From the NCBI GenBank assembly GCA_903893925.1, contig CAITOC010000047.1, positions 1 through 48,492 of the forward strand: DNA of 48,492 bases. The letters are read 5' to 3'. The notes beneath the pieces were generated by a model, which saw nothing but the letters and a program-made list of their open reading frames with translations, did no database searches and was not told where the DNA came from. Below, piece by piece: positions 1,895-42,701 of the stretch; the stretch's first letter is position 1, and the number at the start of each line of letters is the position of its first letter. Both the position numbers and the translations under genes were made by a program. Source of the DNA: Candidatus Moraniibacteriota bacterium. GTDB taxonomy: Bacteria > Patescibacteriota > Minisyncoccia > Moranbacterales > UBA1568.

Positions 1895-1965
1895 AGGAAA
1901 AGAAAGACCTGTCGGTCCGAGAGGACCGTAACGGGTCGCATAGCTTATTCGTGAGTATTTCGAAT

Positions 1966-9300: not shown

Positions 9301-9359
9301 AACTGAATCGTTGCCGAAGGCTAAACCTTCGGAGATATCGAGTATCGATTGTATTCGGT
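9301..9359. repeat. Hairpin between convergent genes, possibly a degenerate relative of the ~105-bp element
   Basis: aactgaatc (shared with the element's left arm), hairpin ccgaagg-ctaaa-ccttcgg at 9314-9332, then gatat...attcggt. Confidence 0.4.
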
Positions 9360-10582: not shown

Positions 10583-10611
10583 GGGGTTGTCGTATGTGGA
10601 TCGTTTACATT

Positions 10612-12238: not shown

Positions 12239-13975
12239 TCATCTGAACAATGAGCGCCAGGTGCGCAGTTTCGAGATGTCGGACATCACTACGGACCGCT
12301 TCTGGTCCGCATCGGACTGGCGTGTCCCGACGATCACTTTTTCGAGCGGTTTGAAAAAAGTCACGGTCAGTGCGCCGAAAGGTCTCTGTTCGAGAATCGT
12401 GAACTTCGAATCCGTGCCGAAGGAATCGTCGGCATAGCGGATATCGAAATAGTTTCCTTCGACGTAGAGCGACGAATCGCGTATCTCGTCGTGGTACCGG
12501 ATGCCACGGCGTTCCAGGAGAGCCCAGAATACGGGTTCGTATTCTGGCTTCGCGTTTATATAGACCGGATAGCCGTTCGCATCGTGTTTCGACGCGATGT
12601 AATCGACAATGAGTCGTTGCTCCCCAAACGTGATGCGGTTCGTGTTCGGGAAGATATCGCCCATCTCGATCTCGCCACGCGTCGTCGGGGCGGTGTCGTC
12701 TTGGAGTCGGGAAAACACTGGGAAAATGGCCTGCATATTAAGACCGACCAGAGTCAGTATGACGATACTGAACGCTACGAGGCGTACGCGACTCTTTTCG
12801 GGACCGACAAGCGTCAGGACAAATCCGTACAGCAGGATCGAAAGCGGGGCGATCAGGAGGAAGAATCTCGGATACATCCGGTAGCCGTCCGCGATGGTGT
12901 AGATGAGATAAAAGGAAACCGCAAGCCACAACAGAATTAAAATGAGAAAATTCTTTCGGTCGGCATCATGCTCTCTGAAAATCCGTACGATCAAGATAAC
13001 TGATCCGGAAAGAACCAGCGCGAGTGCGAGGATTTTCAGACCGAAGCTGTCGCCGTACGCTCCGGGTTCGAACCCATAATCTTTCAGTTTTATCCCGTTG
13101 ATGAGGTCTCTTCCGGTATTGATGAAAAAGGATTCGTAAGCGCCGTACTCGACGGTCTGGACCAGGGTGTCCGGCATGATGAAACTTCCCGGACTCGTCT
13201 TGGCGAACTTCTCTTTCAGGTAGTGGAGATTCTCGCGGTTCGTAACGATATCGTTCGCGATGACGGGGGAATAGATGATGAGGACGATTGCCAGGGCTGC
13301 GACCCAGACCTTCCAATGGAATCGTGGCCGACTGATTGCCGTGAATATGACCGCGACGAGTGGCACCACGAGAAACGAATTGAAATGAATCTGTGACGTG
13401 AGAGTGACTGCACCGACGGAAAAGAGAAACCATCTTGCGGAATATCGCTCTTTTCGGGAAACGCCCCGGAGGAGTGTATAGAAGGAGAGGAGGATCAAAA
13501 ACGGGAGTACGTTCGGACTCCAAGAGAACCGTGAGTACATGACGAGGTAGAGCGAGGAGGAGAAGACAGCCAGAAGGCCGACTGATTCGGTCCGGGAGAA
13601 ATACCGTCTGCAAAAAAGATAGAAGAGTGGCATCGACAGGATCGACAGGATAAGGACATTCATCGCATGTCCGGTCGGCGTATTGCCGAAGACGGTTGCG
13701 GCGACATACTCCATATAATAGAACGCCGGACCAAGCCGCAGGAGGCCACCACCGACATTCGGGCCGAGAAGCGGTAGATCGAGTGGGGAATGGCCGACCG
13801 CGGGAGAGACGAGATCGTAGTCAAATGCCTGGTCCAGTTCGAAATGGAGCCAGTCGGAAAAGTGATAGGTACGTAAAAACACTCCCGCACACACGACGAG
13901 TGAGATGACGAGTACATCTCGCCAGTTTGCGTTTATGTTTCGGAACAGTCTTTCTCGGACCGATGAGAGAGGCAT
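12239..13975 (-). CDS. ArnT/PMT-like GT-C membrane glycosyltransferase, paralog 1
   Basis: LRTYHFSDWLHFELDQAFD, LLGP...LGP.FYY, YSRFSWSPN, QIH and YPRFF. About 11 TMs plus a C-terminal soluble domain. Confidence 0.8.
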   Translation of the reverse strand: MPLSSVRERLFRNINANWRDVLVISLVVCAGVFLRTYHFSDWLHFELDQAFDYDLVSPAVGHSPLDLPLLGPNVGGGLLRLGPAFYYMEYVAATVFGNTPTGHAMNVLILSILSMPLFYLFCRRYFSRTESVGLLAVFSSSLYLVMYSRFSWSPNVLPFLILLSFYTLLRGVSRKERYSARWFLFSVGAVTLTSQIHFNSFLVVPLVAVIFTAISRPRFHWKVWVAALAIVLIIYSPVIANDIVTNRENLHYLKEKFAKTSPGSFIMPDTLVQTVEYGAYESFFINTGRDLINGIKLKDYGFEPGAYGDSFGLKILALALVLSGSVILIVRIFREHDADRKNFLILILLWLAVSFYLIYTIADGYRMYPRFFLLIAPLSILLYGFVLTLVGPEKSRVRLVAFSIVILTLVGLNMQAIFPVFSRLQDDTAPTTRGEIEMGDIFPNTNRITFGEQRLIVDYIASKHDANGYPVYINAKPEYEPVFWALLERRGIRYHDEIRDSSLYVEGNYFDIRYADDSFGTDSKFTILEQRPFGALTVTFFKPLEKVIVGTRQSDADQKRSVVMSDISKLRTWRSLFR

Positions 13976-13979
13976 ACGT

Positions 13980-15824
13980 TTACTCGTTGGCGATGGCGGA
14001 TGCCCGGATGATCTTCACGAAATTATTCGGTCGCCCACCAATGACGACCTCATGTTCGTAAGCAATCGTGTCACTGTACACTTTCTTGAAGTTGATGATA
14101 CTGCTTACCGAGCCGGAGAGTTTCAGCGAGCGACCTTGTCGGCCGATCGAGACGACGAAATAATCGTACGTTTTTCCTTCGAGGTCCTTTTTGCTGAATC
14201 CGATATTACAGGTCCCGACGAATTCGGTGCAGACCGCTCCCTTGTCCGACCAGACGACCAGATTACGGGCATTCGGAAGCGAATTGAGATACGCTGCGGC
14301 CTCGAAGCTCCCGTCGCCCATATCCTTGGTATTGAGGAGGTATTGTGTGGGAAGGAATGCCGAGGCGTATGCGAAATAGAACGGTCGGAGGTAGAGCAGT
14401 GATGCAGCGAGGATAATGATACACGCGAGTGTCGCCGGCAGAGGCTTGACGAAGCGCTTGACCCGATCAATGGACAATACCTCGGCGGCTCCTATCGCTG
14501 CGATGATGAACGCCAGCGGATAGAGGATAATTTGGTAGCGGACGGTCGCGACCACGTCGTTGACGGTAGACGCCAGGTAGTAGAGGAGTATGAAGAGTGA
14601 GAAGGAGATGACCGTTCTCGTTTTCAATGTCATGGGGGTACCGCGGCGGACAGCGGTGAGGAGTCCGACGATGAAGAGAATGAGGAGTATCGGGTGTAGG
14701 CCGAATATCAGGCTGTATGCATTCGCTGTCAGCGCACCGAGAAAGGCAAGCAGGACACCGTGATCATTTATGCCGATGCCTTTCGGGGACGAGAGGATGC
14801 CTTCGAGGTCGAACGGCTTCATACCGAGATAGGTGTCGGCCATGGCAAATAAGATGAGCCCGATAAGGACGGATATCAGTGTTGTTGCCAGCACCCGTTT
14901 GTACTTCGAGAAGAACCGGAGTATCGGACCGATGATTTGGGCGCCGAGGGCGGTGACATCGAGGGCGATGAAGGCGACTAAGCCGGCAAAAATCGGCCAC
15001 GTCTTTTGGAAGGCCTTGCTTCCGAAGGTACCGTCGAGCAAAACATTTGGGTGCGCCCAGGTGGCCGGATAGAGCGCATAGAAGGTCACCATGGAAATCG
15101 CGATGATGGCGAGGTAATTCACGAATGATTTTTTCAGGTACGCTTTCAATTCCGGTTTTTCATCAGCGAGGATATAGTCGAGGAACGGAAGGATGAGGAA
15201 GAAGACATAGAGGATGTTTGCGACATACTTCGTCAGAAGCGAGAGACCGAGGAATACGCCGGTCGTGACGAGAAAAATATTTTCACCCTTCTTCTGGAAG
15301 GTGAGATAACTGAGGAGGGACAAGGGGAGAAATATCCAGAGGAGTGAATCGGGATTGATAATGAGCGAGATTCCGAGCAGGATCGGCGACAGGCCGATGA
15401 ACACGAACCCGAGGAGTGCCGTCTTTTTTCCGAAGAGTTTGTTGAGGAAAAAGGAGAAGGCGGGGAGCATGAACGTGCAGAAGAGGAAAATCGGGAGACG
15501 GAAAGAATAATTGATTCCGTCGATATCGGCGAGTTGGGCGTCCGTCTTGATGCCACCGCGTATATCCTTGGAAAGCATCGGATCGTACTTCAGCAGGCCG
15601 AACCCGGACAAGAGCGCGACGGTGATACCAGGCTTGTCATTGATATTGGTCGATCGCCATTTCTGTTCGGCGACGGCGGTCCAGAATTTCGAGGTCCGCC
15701 CGTAGGTCCAATAGGGCTCGTCGACCGCCGAATAGGTGCTGAGTCGGGGAATGCCGAGGAACAGGTTCAATCCGATGACGAAGAAAATGACGGTTGGTGC
15801 GAAATACTTTCTGAACGTTTTCAT
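13980..15824 (-). CDS. PMT/ArnT-like GT-C membrane glycosyltransferase (different subfamily)
   Basis: DE motif after TM1 (AVDEPYW), KPG, RLP, NPDS, GLSLLTK and RY. Multi-pass. Confidence 0.75.
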   Translation of the reverse strand: MKTFRKYFAPTVIFFVIGLNLFLGIPRLSTYSAVDEPYWTYGRTSKFWTAVAEQKWRSTNINDKPGITVALLSGFGLLKYDPMLSKDIRGGIKTDAQLADIDGINYSFRLPIFLFCTFMLPAFSFFLNKLFGKKTALLGFVFIGLSPILLGISLIINPDSLLWIFLPLSLLSYLTFQKKGENIFLVTTGVFLGLSLLTKYVANILYVFFLILPFLDYILADEKPELKAYLKKSFVNYLAIIAISMVTFYALYPATWAHPNVLLDGTFGSKAFQKTWPIFAGLVAFIALDVTALGAQIIGPILRFFSKYKRVLATTLISVLIGLILFAMADTYLGMKPFDLEGILSSPKGIGINDHGVLLAFLGALTANAYSLIFGLHPILLILFIVGLLTAVRRGTPMTLKTRTVISFSLFILLYYLASTVNDVVATVRYQIILYPLAFIIAAIGAAEVLSIDRVKRFVKPLPATLACIIILAASLLYLRPFYFAYASAFLPTQYLLNTKDMGDGSFEAAAYLNSLPNARNLVVWSDKGAVCTEFVGTCNIGFSKKDLEGKTYDYFVVSIGRQGRSLKLSGSVSSIINFKKVYSDTIAYEHEVVIGGRPNNFVKIIRASAIANE

Positions 15825-15985
15825 GATGAAGCGTTAAGGATAAATTCACATGAGACCGATATCATATATAATATACCGAAATTGGACCCTATTGCAAACA
15901 AAATATCTGTAAAGAAGCCAAAAAATGACTTTACGGTACGATAATAATAAGGTACTATTCCAGTGTGGAAAAGAATACCCTAAAA

Positions 15986-16918
15986 ATGTGGGAAACGGTC
16001 AAACGATCGTGTATCGTTGGCTTTCAAAAATATCGGGCCACACTCTTCGTCGTGGTGTTTTTGTTTTGCACATTCTTCGTTCGGATATATCACATTGCCG
16101 GTCAGTGGTCTGTTGAGATGGGCAACCCGAAGGATTCTTTGGTCGTTCTTGATTCGACAGATTTCCTGAAACGGTATGTCCCCGGTTTCAGGGTCGAAGG
16201 ATATGCGCGGGAGGGAGAGAAAATCGGTTGGATCACGGATATCCATGCGGATCGATTCAAACGACGGACCGTCGAAAGCGGAACGATATATCCCAGGCAG
16301 TATGAAGAGTATGTGCCGAAGGTTTTTGATGCCCTGCGTTCGCAGGGGATAGATACGGTTGTCACGACGGGTGACAATGTCAATTCCGGCGATTCCAATT
16401 ACAGCCGTGCCTTGGAGAAGATTGCTGAGGAAAAACACATGCGGGTGATCTGGACGATCGGAAACCATGACCGCGAGTCGACGATGGCTGATTTTGGCGT
16501 AACCGGGAAGATGTATTATTATACCGACTATGGGAACACGAGGATTATTTCGATTGATGACGTTGACTTTAATAGGGAATCATGGGATTACGTGGGCGGG
16601 ATAGACAGTGAACAGTTGTCGTGGCTTCAGGAGGCGCTTCAGACTGACAAGCGCGTCATTATCGCCATGCATATCCCGATATTTCCGTCATCGCTCGAAT
16701 CTGTGGTGGTAGATCGCTATGCCGCATTCGAGAATCTTGTCCGTGAAAGCGGTGCCGTGAAATTGGTGCTCTCCGGACATTTCCATATTCCATGGCAGAA
16801 GGAGTTTGACGGGATTCCGTATTATGGTGAGGCAGCGCTGTCACGTGACGAGTATAAGGGAGCATACGGAGTGATCGATCTTGGAAAGGATACGGTTCAG
16901 TACCTTTTTGCGAAATAG
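15986..16918 (+). CDS. Calcineurin-like metallophosphoesterase with N-terminal TM anchor
   Basis: TDIH, TGDNVN, GNHD, MH and SGHFH motifs. Alternative GTG start at 15965. Confidence 0.88.
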   Translation: MWETVKRSCIVGFQKYRATLFVVVFLFCTFFVRIYHIAGQWSVEMGNPKDSLVVLDSTDFLKRYVPGFRVEGYAREGEKIGWITDIHADRFKRRTVESGTIYPRQYEEYVPKVFDALRSQGIDTVVTTGDNVNSGDSNYSRALEKIAEEKHMRVIWTIGNHDRESTMADFGVTGKMYYYTDYGNTRIISIDDVDFNRESWDYVGGIDSEQLSWLQEALQTDKRVIIAMHIPIFPSSLESVVVDRYAAFENLVRESGAVKLVLSGHFHIPWQKEFDGIPYYGEAALSRDEYKGAYGVIDLGKDTVQYLFAK

Positions 16919-17016
16919 AACGAGCACTTGGGGAACATCACTTCGATTTTTTGTTTGCGATCTGGAAAAATGGTTCAGGGCGTTTATCGTATAAAGAAGA
17001 TGTAAAGCCGACTGCT

Positions 17017-18768
17017 ATGCGAAAAGTACTCAAATGGTTTGCTAACAACTACGCATTGCTCGTACTCACCGTCATTGTCGGCGTTTCGATATTCGTGCGC
17101 ACGTATCATTTCGACGACTGGCTGTATTTCAAGATGGATCAGTCTCGCGATGCGATTCTGATGAGCAATGCGGTGGAAAACGGTCCGCAGTACCTCCCAC
17201 TTCTCGGTGCACGCGCCGGTGCGGTCAAGCTCAAACACGGATTTCTCCGCCTCGGCCCGATTTTTTATTATTTCCAGTATCTGTCCGGCGTCATCTTCCA
17301 TTCGACACAGCCGTACGTGTACGCATATCCGGATCTACTGTTCTCCATCCTCGCGATACCGCTCCTCTATCTTCTCGTGCGGTTGTATTTCAGTAAGAGA
17401 AACGCTCTTTTGGTGACGGCGATGTATGCGTTCTCGTTCATCATCATCCAGTATTCGCGGTTCGCGTGGAATCCGAACTCGTTGCAATTTTTCCAGTTGG
17501 TGAGTTTCTATGGGCTACTCCGATTTCTGAACGAACCAATCGAGAAACGGAAAAAATGGTGGATGGCGATGTGGGCGACCGGCATGACGATCGGTTCGCA
17601 GCTACACTTCTTTGGCTTCTTCAGTCTCGTCGGGATTTCGGGGCTTCTCTTTATCTTTCATTTCGAGTTGTGGAAGAAGGAGCATATTCAGGCCTGTTTG
17701 CATAAGGACGCACTGAAAAAGATTGCGATCTATGCCGGCATCGCCGTATTGGTCTTCTCATTCTTCTATGCCCCTGTTTTCATCAGTGAGTCCATGCGCG
17801 GTGGGCAAAACTCAAAAAATTTTATTGAGGCACTCGGTTCGAAGCCTGCAGCCAAACCGCTTTCCGACAAGCTCGTGAAGACGGTGACGGAAAACATCAA
17901 ATACTACTGCCTGGTTACGACCTCACAGTGCTATGGGAGTAGCATGAAAAACGAGCTTCCCGCCCTGTCCGTGACGGCGCTCATACTCCTTGCCGGCGCG
18001 TTCCTGGCCATCCGGTCGCTCCGTGACAAGACGAGGTCCGTCGTCGCGCGGGACTTCCTTTTTCTACTCATTGCCTGGGTGGCGGTGTTCACCATATTGA
18101 CCGTGCCGGTCTCTTTTCAACTCCGTCCACGGTTTTTTATCGTCGTGTTTGCGATTCCATTCATTTTCGTCGGCCTGATAGCGGAGTATCTCGATTCTCG
18201 ACTCAAGCGTGGTTCGGCACTCGCGATCGCCTTGTTGCTCGCCGGTGGCATCGTCGGGTGGAATACGCACGGGACCTCCGCGTGGTTCAAGGAGCAGGAA
18301 AAATCGCAGAAGAGCGCGTTAATCGTGAAGCGGACGCTCATCCTCAAGGCCAAGGACGGGGTGACTTTGGGGGAACTGCAGGGCGTGACCGATTGGATGT
18401 ATGCGAGGCATGAATCAGGGAAGACACTTTACTACTATGTGAAGCCGGAACACGTGCGACCGATCGACTATCTGCTTTCTTCCAAACATGATGCCGGACT
18501 CTCTTTCGCTACCATGACGAACAAGACCGACTCGGAGGCTCAGTTTTTCGCGGTGACGCCGACCAAAAGCGGACTCGCTCCCGTGACGAAGAAATTTGGT
18601 GTCAACATAACCGCTCTCAGCTCGCAGCAGTTCGGTCAATTGACAGTATATGAGCTCAGTTTTCCGGATCGTATCATCGAATCGAGTTCTAAGGTCAAAA
18701 AGACGAATGCAGAGCCGGACAGGGTTTTTTGGAAGGATGTGTTCACTTTCAAATCTGCCAAGAAATGA
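17017..18768 (+). CDS. ArnT/PMT-like GT-C, paralog 2
   Basis: VRTYHFDDWLYFKMDQSRD, LGPIFYYFQ, AYPDLLFSIL, YSRFAWNPN and QLH. Confidence 0.8.
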   Translation: MRKVLKWFANNYALLVLTVIVGVSIFVRTYHFDDWLYFKMDQSRDAILMSNAVENGPQYLPLLGARAGAVKLKHGFLRLGPIFYYFQYLSGVIFHSTQPYVYAYPDLLFSILAIPLLYLLVRLYFSKRNALLVTAMYAFSFIIIQYSRFAWNPNSLQFFQLVSFYGLLRFLNEPIEKRKKWWMAMWATGMTIGSQLHFFGFFSLVGISGLLFIFHFELWKKEHIQACLHKDALKKIAIYAGIAVLVFSFFYAPVFISESMRGGQNSKNFIEALGSKPAAKPLSDKLVKTVTENIKYYCLVTTSQCYGSSMKNELPALSVTALILLAGAFLAIRSLRDKTRSVVARDFLFLLIAWVAVFTILTVPVSFQLRPRFFIVVFAIPFIFVGLIAEYLDSRLKRGSALAIALLLAGGIVGWNTHGTSAWFKEQEKSQKSALIVKRTLILKAKDGVTLGELQGVTDWMYARHESGKTLYYYVKPEHVRPIDYLLSSKHDAGLSFATMTNKTDSEAQFFAVTPTKSGLAPVTKKFGVNITALSSQQFGQLTVYELSFPDRIIESSSKVKKTNAEPDRVFWKDVFTFKSAKK

Positions 18769-20933
18769 TGAACCTGAATATGGTATCAAAGCGATTCAAG
18801 AGTCTCCCTCTTCATCACCCGACGAGTATCTCGGTGTTTTTGTATCTGATAATTACGCTCGTATTCACGTATCCGTTGATTGGGAACATCGGCAGTGAAA
18901 TCCCGCAAGGAAGAGGCGACGTTTATCAGGCCATGGCGAATATAGAGAGTCGTGTGGTAAGCGTGACGACGCTCAGCACGCCCGACAAGCTCGTTTTTTT
19001 CGCAAAAAATATCGGCGTTCATCTACCGTACGTGATTCTGAACCTGTTTTTCAACAAATACGTTTCCTATAATCTCCTGTTTCTCTCGAGTTTTGTCTTG
19101 AGTGCGTTGGGAGCGTATCTTCTCGCTTTTTATTTCACGAAAAACAGGTATGCCGCCTTTCTTGCGGGACTGATATACGCATTCTCGCCGTTTCACTTCT
19201 ATCAATCGACGGTGGTCAATCTCGGTACGATGCACCAGGAATGGATTCCCTTTCTCGTCTTGGTGTTTTTCAGGTTTTTCGAGAAGTTGGAAATCAGGTA
19301 TTTCGTGGCGGTTTCGATTTTCGCGTTCCTGATCGCTCTGAATGAACATCAGATGCTCGCTTTCTCCGTGTTGTTCATGGTTATGATAGCGGCATATAAG
19401 ATCTGGATCGATCGGAGCATCCTGAAAAACCGTAGATTTTGGGCATACGTGACTTGCTCCATCGTGCTCCTCGCCACCGTCGCTATTGGAATGTTCGGTG
19501 GGATGCTGAAAGTGGCTACTTCCGACAATAACTATCTGGATGCCGGAGAAAATGCCGCGAACAAATATTCCATCAAAGTGCTCGATCCGATCATGCCACC
19601 GGTCTTCCATTCGATCTGGGGCACTCTGAGCGTGAACATTCAGGAGGCTGTCCTCGGTGATTCCAACAGGGGGTCATACTTCATTGGACTATCGGTATTG
19701 GTGACGATCGTTTACTTCGCTTTCCGGGCACGGAAGAAACTCGTACCGGAAGCAGACGAGGTCACCTATCGCCATGATGTCGCGTTTTGGAGCATATCGT
19801 CACTCCTTTTTTATCTTTTTTCGCTCGGGAACTCGATTTCGATAGGGACATTCGTCATATATCTTCCTTACTATCTGATCTATCGGTTCCTTCCATTCTA
19901 TGAGAACATCCGTACGACCGGACGAATGTTCGTGTTCGTGATGTTGGGAATCTCGGTCCTGTTTTCCTACGGATTCATACAGTTGTTGAAAGAATTTCCG
20001 AAGAAAAAACTAGTGCTGACGGGAATTTTCTCTTTCGTCATACTTCTTGAATTTTGGGCCGCTCCCATAGCCATCATGTCCGTGTCGTATTCGCCCTTTT
20101 ACGATACGATCGCCAAGGATGCCGAACCGTACTCCCTGATCGAGATACCCGGCTCCACCAGCTATGAGTTCGCAAGCTATGCGATGATGACCGACGTCGT
20201 TCACAAGAAGGCGGTCCTCAACGGCATGCCGCTCGCCCGCAAGATCAGCGGTCAGTTCGATATGCAACAGGAGACCCCGATCATTAAACAGCTCCTGTAT
20301 ACGATTCCGAAAGGGAACGATCCGGATACGAAAGACATGACCGATATCCTGAAAGGATTCGACTGGTCACAGGCAAACGATATCCTGAATTATCACCATG
20401 TGCGCTATATCACGGTGAGCAAGCTCTACGCCACCGCGAAGGTACGCTCGCTTGCCGAAACATTCATCACGAATCATATCGCCGTCATGAGCCGGTATGA
20501 GGACCGGTACCTGATCGCCTACGAGGTCGTGAACACGGATCCGAAGGGATACTTCTTCTCGCTCGGAGTGAAGAATGATCAGATTTCGACCATGTTTTTG
20601 GGCGATGATTTGCAAAACTATCGCGAGATCGGGAACGGTGCCGGACTCAAGATCGTCGATATGGGATCCACACCCGAGACGCTGACGATACGGGTTCGCC
20701 TCAAGGGGGCCGTACCGGGACTGACGTTTGGGTCGGTGGGCGATACCGGTCAGACGGTTCTTCCGCTTGACTCGGACCTGAAGGAATATTCCTTCGTGAA
20801 AACGGTGCAACCAGGGGAGAATATCATTCCGTTTTCGGTCCACGATGCGTCTGGAACGCCGGTTTCGATCTCCACTACCAAAAAGAAACATCAGGCTGCG
20901 CTGGTCACCAATATCACCATTGAATCGAAATGA
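18765..20933 (+). CDS. YfhO-like multi-pass membrane protein (putative GT-C) with large C-terminal extracytoplasmic domain
   Basis: FTYPL, YN...L..F.LSALGAYLL, AGLIYAFSPFH, YFIG and LPFYENIRTTGR. ATGA overlap with the upstream gene. Confidence 0.65.
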   Translation: MMNLNMVSKRFKSLPLHHPTSISVFLYLIITLVFTYPLIGNIGSEIPQGRGDVYQAMANIESRVVSVTTLSTPDKLVFFAKNIGVHLPYVILNLFFNKYVSYNLLFLSSFVLSALGAYLLAFYFTKNRYAAFLAGLIYAFSPFHFYQSTVVNLGTMHQEWIPFLVLVFFRFFEKLEIRYFVAVSIFAFLIALNEHQMLAFSVLFMVMIAAYKIWIDRSILKNRRFWAYVTCSIVLLATVAIGMFGGMLKVATSDNNYLDAGENAANKYSIKVLDPIMPPVFHSIWGTLSVNIQEAVLGDSNRGSYFIGLSVLVTIVYFAFRARKKLVPEADEVTYRHDVAFWSISSLLFYLFSLGNSISIGTFVIYLPYYLIYRFLPFYENIRTTGRMFVFVMLGISVLFSYGFIQLLKEFPKKKLVLTGIFSFVILLEFWAAPIAIMSVSYSPFYDTIAKDAEPYSLIEIPGSTSYEFASYAMMTDVVHKKAVLNGMPLARKISGQFDMQQETPIIKQLLYTIPKGNDPDTKDMTDILKGFDWSQANDILNYHHVRYITVSKLYATAKVRSLAETFITNHIAVMSRYEDRYLIAYEVVNTDPKGYFFSLGVKNDQISTMFLGDDLQNYREIGNGAGLKIVDMGSTPETLTIRVRLKGAVPGLTFGSVGDTGQTVLPLDSDLKEYSFVKTVQPGENIIPFSVHDASGTPVSISTTKKKHQAALVTNITIESK

Positions 20934-24201: not shown

Positions 24202-24212
24202 ACGATACAGTT

Positions 24213-25844
24213 ATGAAGCCGTTATCGAAAAATACAACGTGGCCGTATCGTCACGTACTCATTCTGTTAGTCATCATCTTAGGAGGCGCTTTTCTTCGTA
24301 CCTACCGTCTCCACGACTGGCTGGAATTTCGGGGTGATCAGACGAGGGATGCGACCATCGTTGATACGGTGGTGAACGAAGGTTCGAAGTGGCCTCTCCT
24401 TGGTCCGAACATGAATCATACCGGGGATACCGAAGAAACCCGTTTCCATCTCGGTCCGATCTATTATGATTTTCAAATCATGTCGGCCAAGATTTTCGGA
24501 AGCAACCCGGATGTGTTAGCCTATCCCGATGTCATGTTCTGCATCCTGTCTATCCCGCTCCTGTACGCCGTCCTCAGGATATTGTTCGGGGCCAATCTCT
24601 CTCTCGGTCTCACGGGATTATATATGATTTCCCCATATATCGTCCATTATTCCCGTTATGCATGGAGTTCAAACTCGGTCCCGTTTCTCGTACTGCTCTT
24701 CCTTTATTCACTTTACAAATTTCAAAACGACGATGAAAAAACGGATTGGGTCTGGATCATCGGGCTTGGCTTCGCGTGGGGGGTCGGTTTTCAGATCCAT
24801 GCCATACTGATGGTTCTCTTTTCAACGGTTTCTCTCTTCGCATTTATCAGTTCGATGCAAAAGAATCCTGCAGTGTGGAGGCGATGGGCCGTAATAGGAA
24901 CTCTTTTCCTCATCTTGAACATGGGCCAGATCGCCTATGAGATGAAAACGAACTTTGGAAACACGAGGATATTTATCAATTATTTTTATCGTGACAAGAG
25001 TACTGAGATCCCGGTGAGCAAGTTGACGTTGTTGGAGAACGACCTCTCCTGCCATTTTGCGGCGAATTTCTTTTTTCTGACCTCGGCCGGTGAGGGCAAA
25101 TGCTTGTATGATTATTCGGAAATATTTTCGAGGGACCAAAAAATCGGTTTTGGACGGATGTTCAAAGCGGAATCCGGCAGGTTCGTCCTGATCATAAGCC
25201 TCCTGTTTTCCGTTATCGGGTATTCCTTGTTGATATGCCGTGCCAAAAATGAGGCTGTTGATGAAAAGAGGCGGTTTCTACGGCTTATGGTCTTGTACGC
25301 CGGTCTCGGATTTGTCATCATGGCGCCCCTTAGCAACGATGTTTTCAGCGATCTTCGATACTTCACCTTCGTCATATTCATGCCGTACCTTTTTCTCGGA
25401 TTCATCGTGAACGGTCTGTCTGAATGGTCTGCGAAATGGTATTCTGTCGTTGTCGTCGGCATAGTCTTCATCCTAATCGCATGGTTCGATATTTTTGGAA
25501 TTATAGAAGAAGCATCTGTGCTGAATGATGGGAATGGAATTTGTTCCCGTACGGCTATACTCGGTGAGTTGGAGCCGATAGCAGACTACGTCTCTTCGCA
25601 TGCGAATGGACGGACCTCTGTCTATTTGGATGGAGACTATATGATGATCAATTATATCATTTTTCCAATGAAGTTCCTGTTAGCGGAGCGGCACATCGAT
25701 GCGATCAAGTCCGGCGAAGAAAGCGGTGTCACAGCTTCTTCGGATACGCCGACGTTCTATGTGAGTTGCAAAGTATCGCCACAGCATATAAATGAGACCC
25801 AGAAGATCGGGCGCGCGTACGTGTATCCAATAGAGAATCGATGA
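24213..25844 (+). CDS. ArnT/PMT-like GT-C, paralog 5
   Basis: LRTYRLHDWLEFRGDQTRD, LGPIYY, AYPD, YSRYAWSSN, QIH and RYF. Confidence 0.8.
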   Translation: MKPLSKNTTWPYRHVLILLVIILGGAFLRTYRLHDWLEFRGDQTRDATIVDTVVNEGSKWPLLGPNMNHTGDTEETRFHLGPIYYDFQIMSAKIFGSNPDVLAYPDVMFCILSIPLLYAVLRILFGANLSLGLTGLYMISPYIVHYSRYAWSSNSVPFLVLLFLYSLYKFQNDDEKTDWVWIIGLGFAWGVGFQIHAILMVLFSTVSLFAFISSMQKNPAVWRRWAVIGTLFLILNMGQIAYEMKTNFGNTRIFINYFYRDKSTEIPVSKLTLLENDLSCHFAANFFFLTSAGEGKCLYDYSEIFSRDQKIGFGRMFKAESGRFVLIISLLFSVIGYSLLICRAKNEAVDEKRRFLRLMVLYAGLGFVIMAPLSNDVFSDLRYFTFVIFMPYLFLGFIVNGLSEWSAKWYSVVVVGIVFILIAWFDIFGIIEEASVLNDGNGICSRTAILGELEPIADYVSSHANGRTSVYLDGDYMMINYIIFPMKFLLAERHIDAIKSGEESGVTASSDTPTFYVSCKVSPQHINETQKIGRAYVYPIENR

Positions 25845-25870
25845 TGACGATTGTTCGCGAGTGAGCTTCT

Positions 25871-25974
25871 TATACCAAATTAACTGAATCACTGTTACGT
25901 TCAGGAGTTCGACTCCCTCTAGGGAGTCGAACTCCTCTAGTAGCGATATACAAAAAATTACGTTATTTCGGTAT
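25871..25974 (+). repeat. Copy C of the ~105-bp element (full length)
   Basis: tataccaaattaactgaatcactgttacgttc, then aggagttcgactccctctagggagtcgaactcct, then ctagtagcgatatac...gttatttcggtat. Imperfect terminal inverted repeats ataccaaattaac / gttatttcggtat. Confidence 0.88.
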
Positions 25975-26080
25975 TATGTCGAAAATAACTTGATCGTTGA
26001 ACATCGCTGCCGGAGAAGTTCGCCCCGAAAATGCTGGAGTAAACTCCCGATGTGACAGTGTTTTCGTCAACGTGGTATTA
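25974..26080 (-). repeat. Copy D (diverged, inverted, abutting copy C)
   Basis: Reverse complement taataccacgttgacgaaaacactgtcacatcgggagtttactcc...ggggcgaacttctccggcagcgatgttcaacgatcaagttattttcgacataa aligns end to end with copy F. Confidence 0.7.
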
Positions 26081-26099
26081 TACTGGTCCCAAGGTATGA

Positions 26100-27755
26100 A
26101 TGTCTATGAATACGAATGACTGTTCGAAGTTGAATATCCGGCGGATTCCGAAGCATATCTGGTTGCTCCTGTTGATTGTCTGCATCGGCGTGTTCTTGCG
26201 TACGTATCACTTCCACGACTGGCTGGAATTCAAGGGGGACCAGGCGCGCGACGCGAGCCTGGTCCAAGACGTGGTTGCGGGGAATGCCGAATGGCCCCTC
26301 ACGGGTCCCTTCATGTCCAATTCCGCCGCCAACAAGGACGAAACGTTCCATATCGGGCCTCTGTACTATTATTTTCAGATCGTTTCCGCACAAGTATTCG
26401 GCAATATCCCGGAATCATTGGCTTATCCCGATGTATTGTTCTCAATCCTTTCCTTACCGCTGTTCTACCTTTTCTTCAGGAAATACCTCGATCAGAAACT
26501 GTCTTTAGGCGTCACCTTCCTCTATGTGGTCTCCTTTTTTTTCGTGATGCATTCCCGGTTCGCGTGGAATTCCAATCTCATCCCGTGTTTCACCTTGCTC
26601 TTCCTCTTGTCCTTGTTCGAATTCGAATCGGGAGGAATCGCGGTCGGTTGGTTGTGGGCGGTCTTACTCGGTATCGCTCTTGGGGTCGGGGTGCAACTCC
26701 ATGCCATAACCATGATTATTTTTTCGGCCGTTACCGTCTTGTCAATCGGTCGTTCCATCTTCCGGAAACAATCGATCCCGTGGAAAAAATGGGCTGTGGT
26801 CTTCGCGGTGGCGCTCCTTTTGAATACGGGTCAGATTATCGGCGAAACGCAGACCGGCTTTTCCAATGCAAAGATATTCCTCGGTTACTTCACGAATACT
26901 CATCACGATACGTCCGCAAGCAATCAACCATGGAGCGACGCTCATGCGAGCCTCGTGAACGATATCGATTGCCATCTTGAGGCAAATCTCTATTTGTTTA
27001 CTTCCCTGGGTCAAGATCATTGTGTCTATTCCTTTGATGCCCTTTTGAGTGGGACGCGGAGAAATGCAATGAAAATTTTGTTTGAGACACCGCTGTTTTT
27101 CGGTGCCCTTTTCTCGATATTCGGTTTCGCCATGCTCGTGATCCGATGCGCTTCGGAAAAAGACGAGCGGAAGAGAATATGGCTTCGTATGATCGCCTGG
27201 TATATCGCTGTTTCGTTTTTGATCATGTTCCCCGTCGTCAAGGGGAGTCTGGAACTTCGGTATTTCAACTTTGCATTTTTTCTCCCATTCCTGTTCCTTG
27301 GGCTCCTTGCGGAACATGTGATGAGTCAAAAGAATACATGGCTTCTGTATACGGTTCTTTTGGCATTCCCGGCCATAGCCATGATCAATATCCTGTCATT
27401 GTCATCGGTGTATGACGAGCTCGTCCAAAAGGGCCGGATCTATTCACGCTCGGTCGTCCTCGATGAGATAGAACCGATAGCGACATACGTGGTCGCTCAT
27501 GCGGATGGACATACTACGATCTCTCTGTCAGGGAACTCCAAAATTTTGGATTATGCCTTTCATCCCCTAGTATATCTTGTCGCGCAATCCGGGAAGGAAC
27601 TCATCCGTGTCGGAGCCTCGAAAGTGGATGATGTGGCCCGTTCCGGACAGAAGGTATTCTTTGTGAGCACTACTCCTCCCGATCCGGCGGATGCTCCCGA
27701 GTATGGGGCGGTCGGAGAGAAGATATATGTATACGAGGTGAGAACGAACCAATGA
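26100..27755 (+). CDS. ArnT/PMT-like GT-C, paralog 6
   Basis: LRTYHFHDWLEFKGDQARD, IGPLYYYFQ, AYPD, HSRFAWNSN, QLH and ELRYF. Confidence 0.8.
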   Translation: MSMNTNDCSKLNIRRIPKHIWLLLLIVCIGVFLRTYHFHDWLEFKGDQARDASLVQDVVAGNAEWPLTGPFMSNSAANKDETFHIGPLYYYFQIVSAQVFGNIPESLAYPDVLFSILSLPLFYLFFRKYLDQKLSLGVTFLYVVSFFFVMHSRFAWNSNLIPCFTLLFLLSLFEFESGGIAVGWLWAVLLGIALGVGVQLHAITMIIFSAVTVLSIGRSIFRKQSIPWKKWAVVFAVALLLNTGQIIGETQTGFSNAKIFLGYFTNTHHDTSASNQPWSDAHASLVNDIDCHLEANLYLFTSLGQDHCVYSFDALLSGTRRNAMKILFETPLFFGALFSIFGFAMLVIRCASEKDERKRIWLRMIAWYIAVSFLIMFPVVKGSLELRYFNFAFFLPFLFLGLLAEHVMSQKNTWLLYTVLLAFPAIAMINILSLSSVYDELVQKGRIYSRSVVLDEIEPIATYVVAHADGHTTISLSGNSKILDYAFHPLVYLVAQSGKELIRVGASKVDDVARSGQKVFFVSTTPPDPADAPEYGAVGEKIYVYEVRTNQ

Positions 27756-29386
27756 ACGATCACAACACGAATACCGGCATACGATCTTGGGTGAGAAATA
27801 TCCCGAAAAGTGTCCTGATCCTGATCGGGATCATACTGGTCGGTATATTCCTGCGCACATACCGGTTCCACGACTGGCTGGAATTCAAGACCGACCAATC
27901 CCGGGATGCGAGCCTCGTCCAAGACGTGGTACGCCATGATGCGCCGTGGCCACTTTTGGGTCCGGCTATGGGGAATTATGCAACCGATGACGGTGCTCAT
28001 TTCCGGATCGGTCCGATATACTATTCTTTTCAGATCCTCTCCGCAAAGGTATTCGGCCCCACTCCCGACGCGTTGGCCTATCCCGATCTGTTCTTCTCGA
28101 TCCTGACGATCCCGCTCCTCTATTTTTTTCTCAGGAAAGCCTTTGCAGAGAAACTTTCTTTGTGGCTGACCGCTCTGTATACGGTTTCCTTTTTTGCCAT
28201 ACGGTATTCGCGGTTTGCCTGGAATTCCAACCTGATCCCGTTCTTCGTATTGCTCTTCCTTTTGTCCTTGTACGAATTTTGGATACGCCGGGAGCGGGTT
28301 TCGTGGTGGTGGGTCGGCGCACTCGGAGTAGCATTGGGTGTCGGAATCCAATTACATGTCATCACGCTCATACTCTTCTCGGGATTTTTTCTGTTCCTTG
28401 CCATCATCATGTCGATACGGTGGAAGGGGATTCGGTACAAGTTGCTTGCGGTTTGTACCCTGGCACTACTCCTCAACGCCGGTCAGATACGAAGCGAAGT
28501 AGAGACGAATTTCGCCAATGCGAGGATATTCCTTGGCTATTTTATGAAGAGCGACCAAATCGTCTCCCAAGACGAGACCGATGGTGGGCCGAGTATACTC
28601 AACGACGTCGACTGTCATATCCAGGGCAATTCCTATATGTTGACTTCGCTCGGAGAGGACAGTTGTTCGTATACGTTTGGGAGTCTACTCTCGGGAGAAA
28701 TGAACAAGAATGTTCGAAACTGGTTCTTTTGGGTGACGCTGGCGACGAGTCTCGCCTTCTCGGTTTTGGGATATGTCGTGCTTTTCAACCGAGCCCGCAA
28801 AGAGACGGATGCAGATAAGAGGGTCTGGTTCCTCCTTCTTGCCTCGTACCTGGCAGTCTCGTTTTTGGTCATGCTTCCCGTCATCAAGGGAAAAATCGAG
28901 CTTCGCTACTTCAGTTTTGCATTCTTTGCCCCCTTCCTTTTCCTCGGATTTTTGGTAGACTATCTGAAGTCGGCATTTCCGGGATCTTTCAAAGTCGTAG
29001 CGACTCTGCTCTTTTTGGTCATACTTTCGGCCAATACGGTTTCTCTGGTCGCGATGACTCAGGAACTTCTGGACAAGAACAGGCTGTTTTCGAACTCGGT
29101 CGTGCTCGATGAGATGGATCCGATTGTCAGTTACATGACGGAATATGCGTACGGAAATCATACCGTTTCCCTTGGTGGAGACTCCAGAATCGTGGATTTC
29201 GCATTCGCCCCGTTGCAGTACCTTTCGGAATCTCGGGGTATGACACTCGTGCGATCAGCAGATGAAGGCGTTGCATTTGCGTCTCGTAACGAGCGACCGT
29301 CGTTTTTCATCAATAACAAACAGAATTCGGCTACCGCTGTCGGATATCTGAAAATAGGCCAGAAACTCTATGTCCACCGATACTGA
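27752..29386 (+). CDS. ArnT/PMT-like GT-C, paralog 7
   Basis: LRTYRFHDWLEFKTDQSRD, IGPIYY, AYPD, YSRFAWNSN, QLH and ELRYF. Confidence 0.8.
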   Translation: MNDHNTNTGIRSWVRNIPKSVLILIGIILVGIFLRTYRFHDWLEFKTDQSRDASLVQDVVRHDAPWPLLGPAMGNYATDDGAHFRIGPIYYSFQILSAKVFGPTPDALAYPDLFFSILTIPLLYFFLRKAFAEKLSLWLTALYTVSFFAIRYSRFAWNSNLIPFFVLLFLLSLYEFWIRRERVSWWWVGALGVALGVGIQLHVITLILFSGFFLFLAIIMSIRWKGIRYKLLAVCTLALLLNAGQIRSEVETNFANARIFLGYFMKSDQIVSQDETDGGPSILNDVDCHIQGNSYMLTSLGEDSCSYTFGSLLSGEMNKNVRNWFFWVTLATSLAFSVLGYVVLFNRARKETDADKRVWFLLLASYLAVSFLVMLPVIKGKIELRYFSFAFFAPFLFLGFLVDYLKSAFPGSFKVVATLLFLVILSANTVSLVAMTQELLDKNRLFSNSVVLDEMDPIVSYMTEYAYGNHTVSLGGDSRIVDFAFAPLQYLSESRGMTLVRSADEGVAFASRNERPSFFINNKQNSATAVGYLKIGQKLYVHRY

Positions 29387-31037
29387 ACATTCTCCGTCGG
29401 GACGCCTTGGCAGTCTCTGTGATTGGGTCCGGACGGTTCCGAAATTCATATGTATCCTCATCGGTATCGTGGCGGTCGGGATATTCCTCCGTGCCTACCA
29501 TTTCCACGACTGGCTACGATTCAATGCGGATCAGTCGCGTGATGCCGGAGTGGCGAGCGACTCTGTCCAGGGGACCGGCGCCTATCCCTTGCTTGGTCCG
29601 AAAGCCGGCGGAACCGAATTTAAGCTCGGCGGAGCGTTCTATTCGTTGCAGATCCTTTCCGCGCAGGTATTCGGAAACAGCCCCGACAAGATGGCCTATC
29701 CGGATCTGTTCGCGTCCATCGCGACGATCCCGCTCCTCTTCCTCCTCCTTCGTCGGGTATTCCGACAGCCGGTAGCGCTTCTTTTGACGGCCATTTTGTC
29801 CGTGAGCGTCTTCGCGATCAAATACGCCCGGTTTGCCTGGAATCCGAATTCCGGGCCATTTTATTCCATACTGTTCCTATATGCACTTCTCCTATTGGCC
29901 GAGGAACAGACAAAGCGGAGATGGCTCTGGGCGATAGTCGCCGGTGTCGGTCTTGGTATCGGTGTACAGTTACACACCCTGCTTCTGATCATCATGCCGG
30001 TCACCGTTTTTGGTTTTTTCATATTTATCGGGCGAAAGCGACCAACACTCTGGCGACAGGCCGGCATCGTCTTGCTCGTCGCGCTTGCGTTGAATACGGG
30101 ACAGATCGTGGAGATGAGACAGACGAACGGTTCGAATATCAAGGCGTTTTTCGGTGGAACCGCGAGTAAGACGGCCAAGGGACACTCTATTCTTGGGAAC
30201 GTTCTTGACGATGCGACTTGTCAGATACAAGGAGACACATTCATCGTGAGCGGACTCGGCAATGACGACCAGTGCGGTTCAGTCAGCATCTCCGACACGT
30301 ATCAGAAGACCAAAGGTATCGCGGGGAAACTCGCCTTCATGGCCGGGTTATTTTTGTCGGCGGTTTTCACCGTTGGTGGGGTGTGGCTATGGATAGTGGC
30401 TCTCAAGAACACGACCGAACCGAGGAGGAAACTCGCACTGCAACTCACCTTGTGGTACGCTCTGGTCGGATTCGTCCTACTCATCCCGCTTGCAAAAGAG
30501 ATCTCGCTTCGATTCTATCTGGCGATGCTCTTCGTCCCGTTTGTCTTGCTCGGACTCTGGGCGGAGGCCGTCATTTCGTGGGCGAAAGATCACCATACCT
30601 ATGCGTATATCGCTCTCGGTATCGTTACGCTCGTTTTTGTAGGGACGAACCTTTCTGCCGTCTCGATCGCGTTTTCCGATCATTCCGGCAGGAAACAGAT
30701 CGTCGGTTCGACCGATGCGGAGATCACCCTTGGGGAAGTCGAGGGGATGGCGAAGTATATAACAGAGCATTTCCAATCGGGTCAGACGATTTATGTCCGG
30801 GGAAAGCAGACCTATCTCTTCAAGTACCTGAAATCGATCGAATACGTCACTCTGAAGAGCGGTGTCGTCTTGAAGCCGTATTCCAAGAACATGATACCGT
30901 CAAAGGATGACCAGACCGTCCTCATCGCGAATGCCATAAACAAAGGCAAGCTTACGAAGTCGATGGCGGAGGCGTATGATCCCATCGATATCCGGATCTT
31001 CGGACGGTTCTCAATCGAACAAATCGTGCTTAAATAA
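29370..31037 (+). CDS. ArnT/PMT-like GT-C, paralog 8
   Basis: LRAYHFHDWLRFNADQSRD, AYPD, YARFAWNPN, QLH and LRFY. Confidence 0.8.
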   Translation: MSTDTEHSPSGRLGSLCDWVRTVPKFICILIGIVAVGIFLRAYHFHDWLRFNADQSRDAGVASDSVQGTGAYPLLGPKAGGTEFKLGGAFYSLQILSAQVFGNSPDKMAYPDLFASIATIPLLFLLLRRVFRQPVALLLTAILSVSVFAIKYARFAWNPNSGPFYSILFLYALLLLAEEQTKRRWLWAIVAGVGLGIGVQLHTLLLIIMPVTVFGFFIFIGRKRPTLWRQAGIVLLVALALNTGQIVEMRQTNGSNIKAFFGGTASKTAKGHSILGNVLDDATCQIQGDTFIVSGLGNDDQCGSVSISDTYQKTKGIAGKLAFMAGLFLSAVFTVGGVWLWIVALKNTTEPRRKLALQLTLWYALVGFVLLIPLAKEISLRFYLAMLFVPFVLLGLWAEAVISWAKDHHTYAYIALGIVTLVFVGTNLSAVSIAFSDHSGRKQIVGSTDAEITLGEVEGMAKYITEHFQSGQTIYVRGKQTYLFKYLKSIEYVTLKSGVVLKPYSKNMIPSKDDQTVLIANAINKGKLTKSMAEAYDPIDIRIFGRFSIEQIVLK

Positions 31038-31072: not shown

Positions 31073-31169
31073 TTTGAAATGATGTGTTGTGTATATTGCA
31101 ACAGAAGGAGCTAGGCTCCGAATCGGATTTTAGCTCCTGAATGTAGGAGTGATTCAGTCAATTTGGTAT
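31073..31169 (-). repeat. Copy E of the ~105-bp element (different central hairpin)
   Basis: Reverse complement is ataccaaattgactgaatcactcctacattc-aggagctaaaatccgattcggagcctagctcct-tctgttgcaatatacacaac. Confidence 0.78.
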
Positions 31170-31265
31170 CAGTTGCCATGATTGGCGGATTTCGTATATA
31201 CTATCGGTGAAAGAGACGGCTTTGCCCACCGCGGCGATTGCGGGAACACAACCGGAACCTTCACA

Positions 31266-32924: not shown

Positions 32925-33032
32925 ATACCAAATGAACTGAATCACTGTGACGTTCAGGAGTTCGCCCCTTCGAATGACGGGGCGAACTCCTCTGGCAGCG
33001 CGATATACAAGAAATCAAGATATTTCGGTATA
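32925..33032 (+). repeat. Copy F of the ~105-bp element (full length, variant hairpin)
   Basis: ataccaaatgaactgaatcactgtgacgttc-aggagttcgcccc...ggggcgaactcct-ctggcagcgcgatatac...atttcggtata. Confidence 0.85.
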
Positions 33033-42275: not shown

Positions 42276-42701
42276 CTATCGCTCCCGATAAATCTCTTTT
42301 TTCGTGCCGTCATCGGCGGAGACGGAAATGGTCGTGCGGCCTGGATCGGCCGGAATGGCCAATCGTACCGTTTCGCTTTGTCCTTTGCTAAGCGAGATGG
42401 GTGCAGTATTGAGCTCGGTGTCGTCGTGGGAAACGGTATAGGTGAATCGCGTAATGGAGGAGTGGTTGTCAATCGTGAAATCGGATGATGATGGATCTCG
42501 GGTCTCGAAGGAAAGCGTCCACCAGTTCTTCCCGAGATTCGGATCGAGGTCACGGTCTATCCGGACAAAAAGCACTCCGGAAGCGATAGCGAAGAAAAAG
42601 AGTACTATCAAAACCGTCGGGATATCTCCCGTAGCGCGTCTTTGTATGCCGGCAAGCGGTCGCTCGGATTTTTTTTCGACGGTCTTAGCGGTTTCGTTCA
42701 T
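42276..42701 (-). CDS. Single-TM protein with beta-rich (Ig-like, DUF1616-like) outer domain
   Basis: Start MNETAK overlaps the upstream stop. TM segment followed by WTLSF...FTIDNH....FTYTV. The DUF1616 resemblance is judged by eye. Confidence 0.6.
   Translation of the reverse strand: MNETAKTVEKKSERPLAGIQRRATGDIPTVLIVLFFFAIASGVLFVRIDRDLDPNLGKNWWTLSFETRDPSSSDFTIDNHSSITRFTYTVSHDDTELNTAPISLSKGQSETVRLAIPADPGRTTISVSADDGTKKEIYRER

Follow-up and report, generated by a model that had tools for sequence, protein, structure and literature searches.

Genomic setting and layout of the array

The stretch of DNA analysed here (the window, 48,492 nucleotides) is an entire contig (C47, 48 kb) from the genome of a Candidatus Moraniibacteriota bacterium, which comprises 1,184,218 bases in 88 contigs and is rated 98% complete. 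The window is occupied throughout by a conserved envelope-glycan cluster, within which lies an array of eight paralogous genes for GT-C glycosyltransferases, P1 to P8, that are the subject of this study (Table 1). The present genome is labelled G000, and its congeners G004 and G005 are used for comparison. All eight open reading frames (ORFs) are full length, and internal stops were found in none of them (0/8). The paralogs are alignable end to end at pairwise identities of 23-48%, and a profile derived from P1-P8 scores each of them at E 1e-181 to 1e-228, which excludes chance relatedness.

The genes are closely packed. ATGA overlaps of start and stop codons join P2 to the gene of a 722-aa membrane protein (18765-18768), this gene to P3 (20930-20933), P3 to P4 (22582-22585) and P6 to P7 (27752-27755), and P7 and P8 overlap by 17 nt (29370-29386). 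The six tandem paralogs are divided three and three by a 255-bp gap between P5 and P6, and a terminator-like hairpin lies at the end of P8 (31026-31042). A preliminary description of this locus, made from the sequence alone, had listed eight intact genes at these places, several of them with overlapping starts and stops, and the list proved accurate; P2 can in addition start upstream, at a TTG codon. The count of eight holds for the family members in the window, whereas further genes of the cluster had been overlooked, namely a ninth gene of distant PMT type (15% identity to P1 and outside the eight-gene family), a GH28 gene, an ALG10-like GT-C gene and, inside the array, the coupled 722-aa gene. 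Four more copies of the P family, which had also been missed, lie on other contigs (a tandem pair on C26, and one copy each on C10 and C12).

A genome-wide Pfam search for PMT_2 yielded 16 genes of this type, nine of which are within the cluster; their summed ORF length of about 27 kb amounts to 2.3% of the genome. Three of the 16 are outside the P family: a tandem pair at C22:12520-16073, which adjoins a 1653-aa ORF, and a single gene at C48:11495-13228.

Table 1. Positions and properties of the array genes and of other features in the window, with amino acid identities to orthologs in the congener G005 (and in other genomes where given).
Feature	Position	Strand	Properties	Identity to G005 ortholog (others)
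P1, GT-C paralog	12239-13975	-	578 aa; PMT_2 E 4.4e-7; 'core' clade of the family, widely conserved	73.5%
P2, GT-C paralog	16951-18768	+	605 aa from TTG 16951, or 583 aa from ATG 17017; PMT E 4.9e-11 (43.1 bits), PMT_2 E 4e-7	80%
P3, GT-C paralog	20930-22585	+	551 aa; PMT E 8.9e-7 (29.1 bits), PMT_2 E 6.9e-6 (26.8 bits)	68% (G004: 63%)
P4, GT-C paralog	22582-24201	+	539 aa; PMT_2 E 8.5e-12	75% (G004: 70.5%)
P5, GT-C paralog	24213-25844	+	543 aa; PMT_2 E 8e-11	60.6%
P6, GT-C paralog	26100-27755	+	551 aa; PMT_2 E 1.1e-7; structure modelled; extra copy relative to G005 and G004	
P7, GT-C paralog	27752-29386	+	544 aa; PMT_2 E 6.3e-7; 48% identity to P6	55%
P8, GT-C paralog, array end	29370-31037	+	555 aa; PMT_2 E 3.5e-10	70% (G004: 64%)
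Ninth, distant PMT/PMT_2-type GT-C	13980-15824	-	614 aa; PMT E 1.9e-9, PMT_2 E 4.4e-9; between P1 and P2	80%
722-aa multi-pass membrane protein	18765-20933	+	about 9 hydrophobic segments; beta-rich C-terminal domain; ATGA-coupled to P2 and P3	61.5%
Calcineurin-like metallophosphoesterase	15965-16918	+	Metallophos E 1.5e-16; hydrophobic segment at residues 27-45; first of the plus-strand genes	
GH28 galacturonidase-like beta-helix protein	10612-12228	-	Glyco_hydro_28 E 3.2e-28; NCBIfam alpha-D-galacturonidase E 2.2e-98, under cut-off; hydrophobic N-terminus	69%
ALG10/DIE2-like GT-C	9359-10615	-	418 aa; DIE2_ALG10 E 1.5e-34; about 12 hydrophobic segments; downstream of P1 and GH28	57% (G004: 53%; G026: 44%)
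ArnC/GtrB-type membrane-linked GT2, candidate polyprenyl-phosphate sugar synthase	1951-2904	+	ArnC 9bhc E 1.2e-43 (residues 13-315 of 317); GtrB 5ekp E 1.8e-28; 2-3 C-terminal hydrophobic segments	
Second membrane-linked GT2, DPMS/AglJ/ArnC type	45829-46815	-	DPMS 5mlz E 8.9e-10; ArnC 9hwj E 2.4e-9; NCBIfam AglJ E 1.6e-32, under cut-off; two C-terminal hydrophobic segments	
Flippase-like membrane protein 1 (MprF TM-region family)	5421-6374	+	LPG_synthase_TM E 1e-30; TIGR00374 E 1.4e-17, above cut-off	
Flippase-like membrane protein 2 (MprF TM-region family)	8322-9257	+	LPG_synthase_TM E 2.5e-36; TIGR00374 E 2.8e-16, above cut-off	
Wzx/MurJ-superfamily polysaccharide flippase	33089-34561	-	Polysacc_synt E 8.2e-26; borders the GT-C slot in relatives	88%
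Wzy_C/O-antigen-ligase-like polymerase or ligase	35409-36983	+	Wzy_C E 1.4e-16	70%
659-aa protein	42685-44664	-	about 14 hydrophobic segments; between two GT4 genes; no Pfam or NCBIfam family	(G004: 71%)
RtcB (flank)				94%
AsnB (flank)				88%
Intergenic repeat, four copies	66-87; 25869-25936; 31125-31172; 32925-32946	-; +; -; +	4 in the window vs 0 expected in shuffles	

Family assignment and fold

All eight paralogs passed the gathering score of Pfam PMT_2 (PF13231): their scores range from 26.8 bits, with which P3 barely exceeds the cut-off of 26.1, to 46.0 bits. Pfam PMT (PF02366) was above its cut-off for P2 and P3 and was unreported for the other six. An NCBIfam scan of P1-P8 gave no match to an ArnT model at E<=0.01; it returned weak Agl23 (TIGR03663) matches far under the cut-off and, for P5, one weak match to the LA_3751/LA_3752 family. 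Public homologs, for example those of P4, are labelled 'glycosyltransferase family 39 protein' (Candidatus Moraniibacteriota / Moranbacteria), a GT39 label that comes from automatic annotation, and many JGI names read 'ArnT-like'.

Structure modelling covered one of the eight paralogs, P6, for which AlphaFold2 produced a model from the eight-sequence alignment with a predicted local distance difference test (pLDDT) score of 70.1 and a predicted template modelling (pTM) score of 0.75. The top Foldseek match of this model was ArnT (5f15, E 8.8e-6), and all 18 matches at E<=0.001 were GT-C enzymes with a probability of 1.00, including ArnT, AglB, Pmt4, Pmt1-Pmt2, STT3/OST complexes, AftA and PglB. 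The matches listed slightly above this threshold, such as ALG12 at 1.0e-3, were likewise GT-C enzymes.

Sixteen residues (numbered throughout as in P6) are invariant in the eight paralogs: R34, Y36, D40, W41, L42, F44, D47, D51, G86, Y90, R153, N159, Q199, H201, R387 and E456. Across all 64 family members from 15 genomes, R34, D47, D51, G69, G86, N159, H201 and R387 are invariant. In the P6 model, the first transmembrane helix (TM1) spans residues 18-35 and is followed by short helices (38-59) that bear D47 and D51. According to passages of PMC13503287, GT-C_A enzymes are defined by a conserved N-terminal module of seven helices and a variable C-terminal module, and their catalytic base is carried by the helix that opens the first external loop; the modelled position of D47/D51 may correspond to this site. 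The motifs, the acidic residues after TM1 and the GT-C identity that the preliminary description had read from the sequence were all borne out by these analyses. Because PMT_2 was found in all eight, together with a GT-C fold and the acidic residues of loop 1, while no ArnT model matched and PF02366 was present in two only, P1-P8 are filed as class GT-C_A enzymes of the PMT_2 type, neither as ArnT nor as proven protein mannosyltransferases.

The paralogs might instead be PMT-type protein O-glycosyltransferases comparable to actinobacterial Pmt, each modifying different secreted or surface proteins (S-layer proteins, pilins or adhesins) and not a polysaccharide. Such a role would fit the PF02366 matches of P2, P3 and the ninth gene, the public GT39 names, and the presence of Pmt4 and Pmt1-Pmt2 among the best fold matches; moreover, the only sequence match of the family profile to a protein of solved structure was yeast Pmt2 (E 0.012). 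However, six of the eight paralogs match PMT_2 only, and the top fold match is ArnT, with oligosaccharyl- and arabinosyltransferases scoring equally, so that these functions are not told apart by the fold. The surroundings also argue for a polysaccharide, as they consist of a Wzx/Wzy pathway with uronic-acid enzymes (two UDP-sugar dehydrogenases, an amidotransferase and GH28) and several GT4 enzymes, and no obvious gene for a target protein was seen in the window. Dedication of the array to protein O-glycosylation is thus judged quite improbable.

Orthologs and gene order in related genomes

In a maximum-likelihood tree inferred by a quick run under LG+G4 from 65 rows, with the distant ninth gene as root, P1-P5 and P8 each have a partner in G005; for all of these except P5, there is a partner in G004 as well. 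P6 and P7 jointly correspond to a single gene in G005 and to a single gene in G004, P6 being sister to the group of P7 and those genes. Support in the Shimodaira-Hasegawa-like approximate likelihood ratio test (SH-aLRT) was 95-100 for the small ortholog groups, and just 88-93 for some inner pairings of array genes with G005 genes. The P1 clade contains single-copy orthologs in G002, G003, G007, G008, G009, G013, G021, G023 and G029. The P2 clade covers seven genomes, with orthologs in G004, G005, G006, G012, G017 and G026, and the 'expanded' clade of about 545 aa (35 rows, including the six tandem genes) is restricted to these six and G000.

The gene order in G005 is GH28, P1, distant PMT, P2, 722-aa gene, P3, P4, P5, P7 and P8, which matches that of G000; G005 is without the phosphoesterase gene, without one copy of the P6/P7 pair and without the gap between P5 and P6. 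G004 shares this order, and in both congeners synteny extends to the flanks of the entire cluster. A Wzx homolog was found inside or just past six of the seven array loci compared, and was not seen in the 12 kb covered for G017. The distant ninth GT-C is present in three copies in G026. Paralog gain and loss in the slot beside Wzx occurs between species and genera.

Distribution of the family

In the sample of the order, a match was defined by a profile E<=1e-30 and at most nine candidates per genome were scored, so that numbers of matches are not exact copy numbers. Within the order, 137 of 151 genomes had a match and 14 had none; most genomes had 1-3 matches, and 13, G000 included, had at least five. 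Tandem runs of family genes occur in several families of the order (G063:C41, G068:C4, G095:C6, G052:C10 and G158:C46). In the same genus, G000 has 12 matches, G005 nine, G004 and G006 seven each, and five other genomes 1-3. In the sample of the phylum, 18 of 201 genomes were matched, two of which are G000 and one genome of the same order, leaving 16 of 199 outside the order. The best of these outside matches reached E 3.8e-50, and most of them span the N-terminal half only; in other orders of the same class, none of eight genomes had a match. Among 1.84 billion proteins clustered at 50% identity, the profile matched 639 clusters at E<=1e-30. With 137 of 151 genomes matched in the order and 16 of 199 outside it, the subfamily is close to order-specific, and its expansion is patchy and lineage-specific. 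One-to-one orthologs fixed across distant taxa without lineage-specific expansion, which the preliminary description had named as an observation that would speak against its own interpretation, were accordingly found in part: orthologs are fixed among the close congeners, but not across distant taxa.

Divergence and selection

Sequence divergence among the eight paralogs is unevenly distributed. Mean identity is highest in TM1 and loop 1 (43.6%), followed by the next block of transmembrane helices (37.5%), the later transmembrane helices (25.1%) and the large external loop at residues 256-325 (20.9%), and it is lowest in the C-terminal soluble part (20.0%). The C-terminal domain had been singled out before as the most diverged part, which is correct, with the external loop close behind. 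In GT-C_A enzymes the variable module supplies most contacts with the acceptor, as stated in passages of PMC13503287. The layout of divergence is the usual pattern of a conserved and a variable module; it fits the idea of one donor and different acceptors, yet is ordinary for this fold.

The ratio of nonsynonymous to synonymous substitution (dN/dS, Nei-Gojobori method, NG86) between G000 and G005 ranged from 0.10 to 0.18 among the eight paralogs and was 0.21 in the 722-aa gene; all regions stayed at or below 0.29. Taken as a rough sign, these ratios suggest that all paralogs are under purifying selection. They also bear on the proposal that duplication has left several redundant or catalytically inactive copies, which persist only because drift prevails in a small population. 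Two observations would suit such remnants, namely the 473-aa family copy at C12:24359-25780, which is without the C-terminal domain, and the lineage-specific pair P6/P7. However, the eight copies of the window are stop-free and retain every residue that is invariant in the family, and their orthologs have been kept over a synonymous divergence (dS) of more than 1 at the low dN/dS given above. Besides, 27 kb of dead genes would be unlikely in a genome of only 1.18 Mb that is 98% complete. Decay of the array is therefore considered very improbable.

Stability of the locus and search for switching signals

The preliminary description had interpreted the array as a repertoire of extracytoplasmic enzymes, sharing a donor and differing in acceptor, that possibly generates diversity of surface glycans for host attachment or phage evasion. 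On this reading, strains would differ in their surface glycans under pressure from host attachment or phages. Several of the comparisons between genomes are in line with this view. Family copy number varies widely among relatives, both in the genus and in the order; a single slot beside Wzx differs in content in G006, G012, G017, G026 and G007; the parts assigned to the acceptor side are the most diverged; and the P6/P7 pair gives G000 an additional copy relative to G005 and G004. On the other side stand the orthologs in identical order in the congeners, at 55-80% identity, and the dN/dS of about 0.1-0.2 across all domains.

Evidence from metagenomes also argues against a variable repertoire. 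Of the 20 DNA runs listed, 16 contain the stretch at 0.82-0.99 of sampled words; these runs are freshwater and lake metagenomes from 14 studies. In a run from an independent study, a 22,225-nt contig spans 12000-25896 with five differences in 13.9 kb, and a 4,359-nt contig spans 25924-30282 with four. The locus is nearly identical across runs that differ in study and year, and the contigs of four runs yielded no supported structural variant; a part of the stretch is without cover in one of these runs. The joints listed as candidate structural variants were rejected, since their sides were short (29-79 letters) and of low depth or lay at a multi-copy repeat.

Signals of switching were likewise sought. 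No simple-sequence tracts occur in or before the array genes, where the tandem-repeat rows are two-copy matches scoring 31-40, and the repeat search of the window revealed no invertible promoter. Promoter-like sites occur at chance level (23 vs 19.5 +/- 4.3 in shuffles). The sole long inverted repeat, a 48-nt sequence flanking P6-P8, was considered as the border of an invertible segment, and this reading was dropped because the element is an intergenic repeat with 47 copies genome-wide. Moreover, the overlaps between the genes imply translational coupling, and the genes would therefore be expressed together and not alternatively. Taken together, a strain-varying repertoire is unlikely, and this part of the earlier interpretation is not supported.

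The repeat itself consists of a core ATACCAAATKAACTGAATCACT, then GTTACGTTCAGGAGTTCG, and then a GC-rich perfect hairpin. Its 47 copies were counted at <=4 mismatches in 1.18 Mb, and many of them adjoin contig ends. The copy at 25869-25936 has a perfect 16-bp hairpin and lies inside the gap between P5 and P6, and the copy at 31125-31172 is inverted; metagenome contigs break at the repeat, at 25870-25925. The repeat may be a module resembling a repetitive extragenic palindrome or a miniature inverted-repeat transposable element (REP/MITE-like), or a terminator module.

Other genes of the cluster

The contig further encodes three GT2 and three GT4 glycosyltransferases, two UDP-sugar 6-dehydrogenases, an AsnB-type amidotransferase, two flippase-like proteins, a Wzx-type flippase and a Wzy_C protein. 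A genome-wide search with the ArnC-like query found five GT2 homologs, of which only two, both in the window, matched over their full length (Table 1). The genome also encodes UppS and, outside C47, a single GtrA-family protein. Because GH28, the two UDP-sugar 6-dehydrogenases and the amidotransferase occur in one biosynthetic cluster, the gene content hints at a polymer that may contain (amidated) uronic acids and be trimmed by the GH28 hydrolase.

The ALG10/DIE2 family is known chiefly from the eukaryotic endoplasmic reticulum (ER); homologs of the ALG10-like protein were seen in the loci of G005, G004 and G026. At the corresponding place in the arrays of G005 and G004, no homolog of the metallophosphoesterase was found, and two homologs lie within the array of G012.

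For the 722-aa protein, a Pfam search up to E 5 and a profile search of the PDB were both empty. Its comparison with the P family by hhalign gave a probability of 42% (E 2.7e-4) across the core PMT_2 region, and its nearest Atlas clusters are annotated as hypothetical, DUF6311 or YfhO; the AlphaFold2 model was poor (pLDDT 50.7, pTM 0.36). The gene is syntenic in G004, G005, G006 and G017. From these remote similarities, the 722-aa protein may be a distant GT-C enzyme.

The 659-aa protein listed in Table 1, which has an ortholog in G004, is a further membrane component of the cluster that falls into no family. An Rfam search of the window gave zero family matches.

Proposed role of the array

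In our view, the array is probably, though by no means certainly, a fixed set of extracytoplasmic GT-C transferases that use few shared lipid-linked donors at different acceptor positions, and not a switchable or fast-evolving repertoire. The orthologs in the same order in the congeners, together with the purifying selection on all paralogs, point to a fixed pathway of multiple steps, with acceptor sites that probably differ from paralog to paralog. That donors are shared while acceptors differ is plausible from the gene content, since 16 PMT_2-type genes are accompanied by only two full-length synthases of the ArnC/DPMS type.

A possible course of the pathway can be outlined as follows. The ArnC-like and DPMS/AglJ-like GT2 enzymes (1951-2904 and 45829-46815) would take the sugar from a nucleotide sugar and attach it to undecaprenyl phosphate on the inner side of the membrane. 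The lipid-linked sugar would then be turned outward by a flippase, for which the two TIGR00374 proteins or Wzx are candidates. The conserved N-terminal module of each paralog (D47/D51, R34, N159, H201 and R387) would then transfer the sugar outside the cell, and the diverged external loop and C-terminal domain would direct it to a position that differs between paralogs, on an acceptor polymer or protein of the cell surface. We infer solely from linkage that the GT-A, flippase and GT-C components work together.

Several points weigh against a fixed, shared-donor set. The content of the slot beside Wzx changes between genera, as described above, and a diversity-generating repertoire would lead one to expect such change over longer times. 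Assembled contigs drop rare variants, and structural variants of minor populations could therefore escape, and no RNA run is listed among the 20 runs matching the stretch. The dS values of 1.1-2.8 are near saturation, with three sub-regions saturated, which makes dN/dS rough and blind to positive selection at specific sites. The P6 model is of medium quality, its query-normalised TM-scores to solved GT-C enzymes are modest (0.30-0.49), and the family profile matches the PDB weakly, with Pmt2 as its sole match. Finally, the argument from the ratio of GT-A to GT-C genes presumes that one ArnC-like query caught every donor synthase.

Comparison with known systems

The proposed set can be compared with the multi-component transmembrane glycosylation systems of Gram-positive bacteria (CsbB/GtcA/YfhO, GtlA/GtlB and L. 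lactis CsdAB/CD/EF). As described in passages of PMC8035078, a membrane GT-A makes a C55-P-sugar in these systems, a flippase turns it outward, and outside the cell a multi-spanning GT-C enzyme passes the sugar on to a polymer of the envelope; the proteins with a PMT_2 domain named there include GtlB. The window resembles the systems so described in encoding all three kinds of genes, that is, a GT-A, flippase candidates and GT-C enzymes. Unlike the GT-A/GT-C pairs described there, it holds at least nine PMT_2-type GT-C genes and the ALG10-like gene against two full-length membrane-linked GT-A genes, an unusual ratio, and its flippase candidates are MprF-TM-like (TIGR00374) proteins and Wzx, not GtrA.

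ArnT (GT83, PDB 5EZM/5F15), the undecaprenyl-phosphate-L-Ara4N:lipid A transferase, is the best structural match of the P6 model. The paralogs are similar to it in size (539-605 aa vs 541 aa), and an ArnC-like donor synthase is present in the cluster. In contrast, identity in the structural alignment is only 12-13%, the NCBIfam scan gave no ArnT match, and the loop-1 motif F-x-x-D-Q-x-x-D is specific to the present subfamily.

In mycobacteria, EmbA/B/C and AftA-D build arabinan outside the membrane from decaprenyl-phosphate sugars, forming different linkages from a shared donor. The present genome shares with them the occurrence of several GT-C enzymes in one organism, and AftA, AftB and EmbA/B are among the fold matches of P6; the relation is nevertheless one of fold only, and the mycobacterial enzymes are larger and carry carbohydrate-binding domains. 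A further parallel is offered by ALG3, ALG9 and ALG12 of the ER, which, according to passages of PMC13503287, are duplicated GT-C_A paralogs that use the common donor Dol-P-Man in a fixed order at different acceptor positions, with contacts made mostly by the variable module. All three are among the fold matches of P6. Unlike the array, they are, as far as those passages describe them, eukaryotic, belong to different CAZy families (GT22 and GT58) and are not clustered in the genome.

A full-text literature search returned no paper on GT-C glycosyltransferases of Patescibacteria or on GT39 in the candidate phyla radiation, and the single paper found for Moranbacteria together with glycosyltransferases names each of them once. 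The kind of system is already well known, and the genes are already publicly named as GT39 or ArnT-like; the finding is useful but unsurprising.

A broader role may be imagined for these ultra-small and probably host-attached bacteria, in which the whole GT-C set (the 16 PMT_2-type enzymes, the ALG10-like enzyme and the 722-aa protein) does more than decorate a polymer and builds up the greater part of a complex, branched glycan of the cell surface, working outside the membrane with two or three lipid-linked sugars in the manner of mycobacterial arabinan synthesis, and turnover at the species level beside Wzx sets which host or phage the cell can meet. We regard this as rather unlikely and put it forward tentatively. 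The genomes of Patescibacteria are very small, and these bacteria rely on contact with other cells. If the broader role were true, extracytoplasmic assembly would be a donor-sparing route to a large glycan in a cell that affords few sugar-nucleotide pathways. If each enzyme makes one defined linkage from a shared lipid-linked donor, the array would also be a small, naturally occurring collection in which acceptor choice by the variable module of GT-C enzymes could be studied, and the locus may serve as a marker of differences in surface glycans between species of Moranbacteria.

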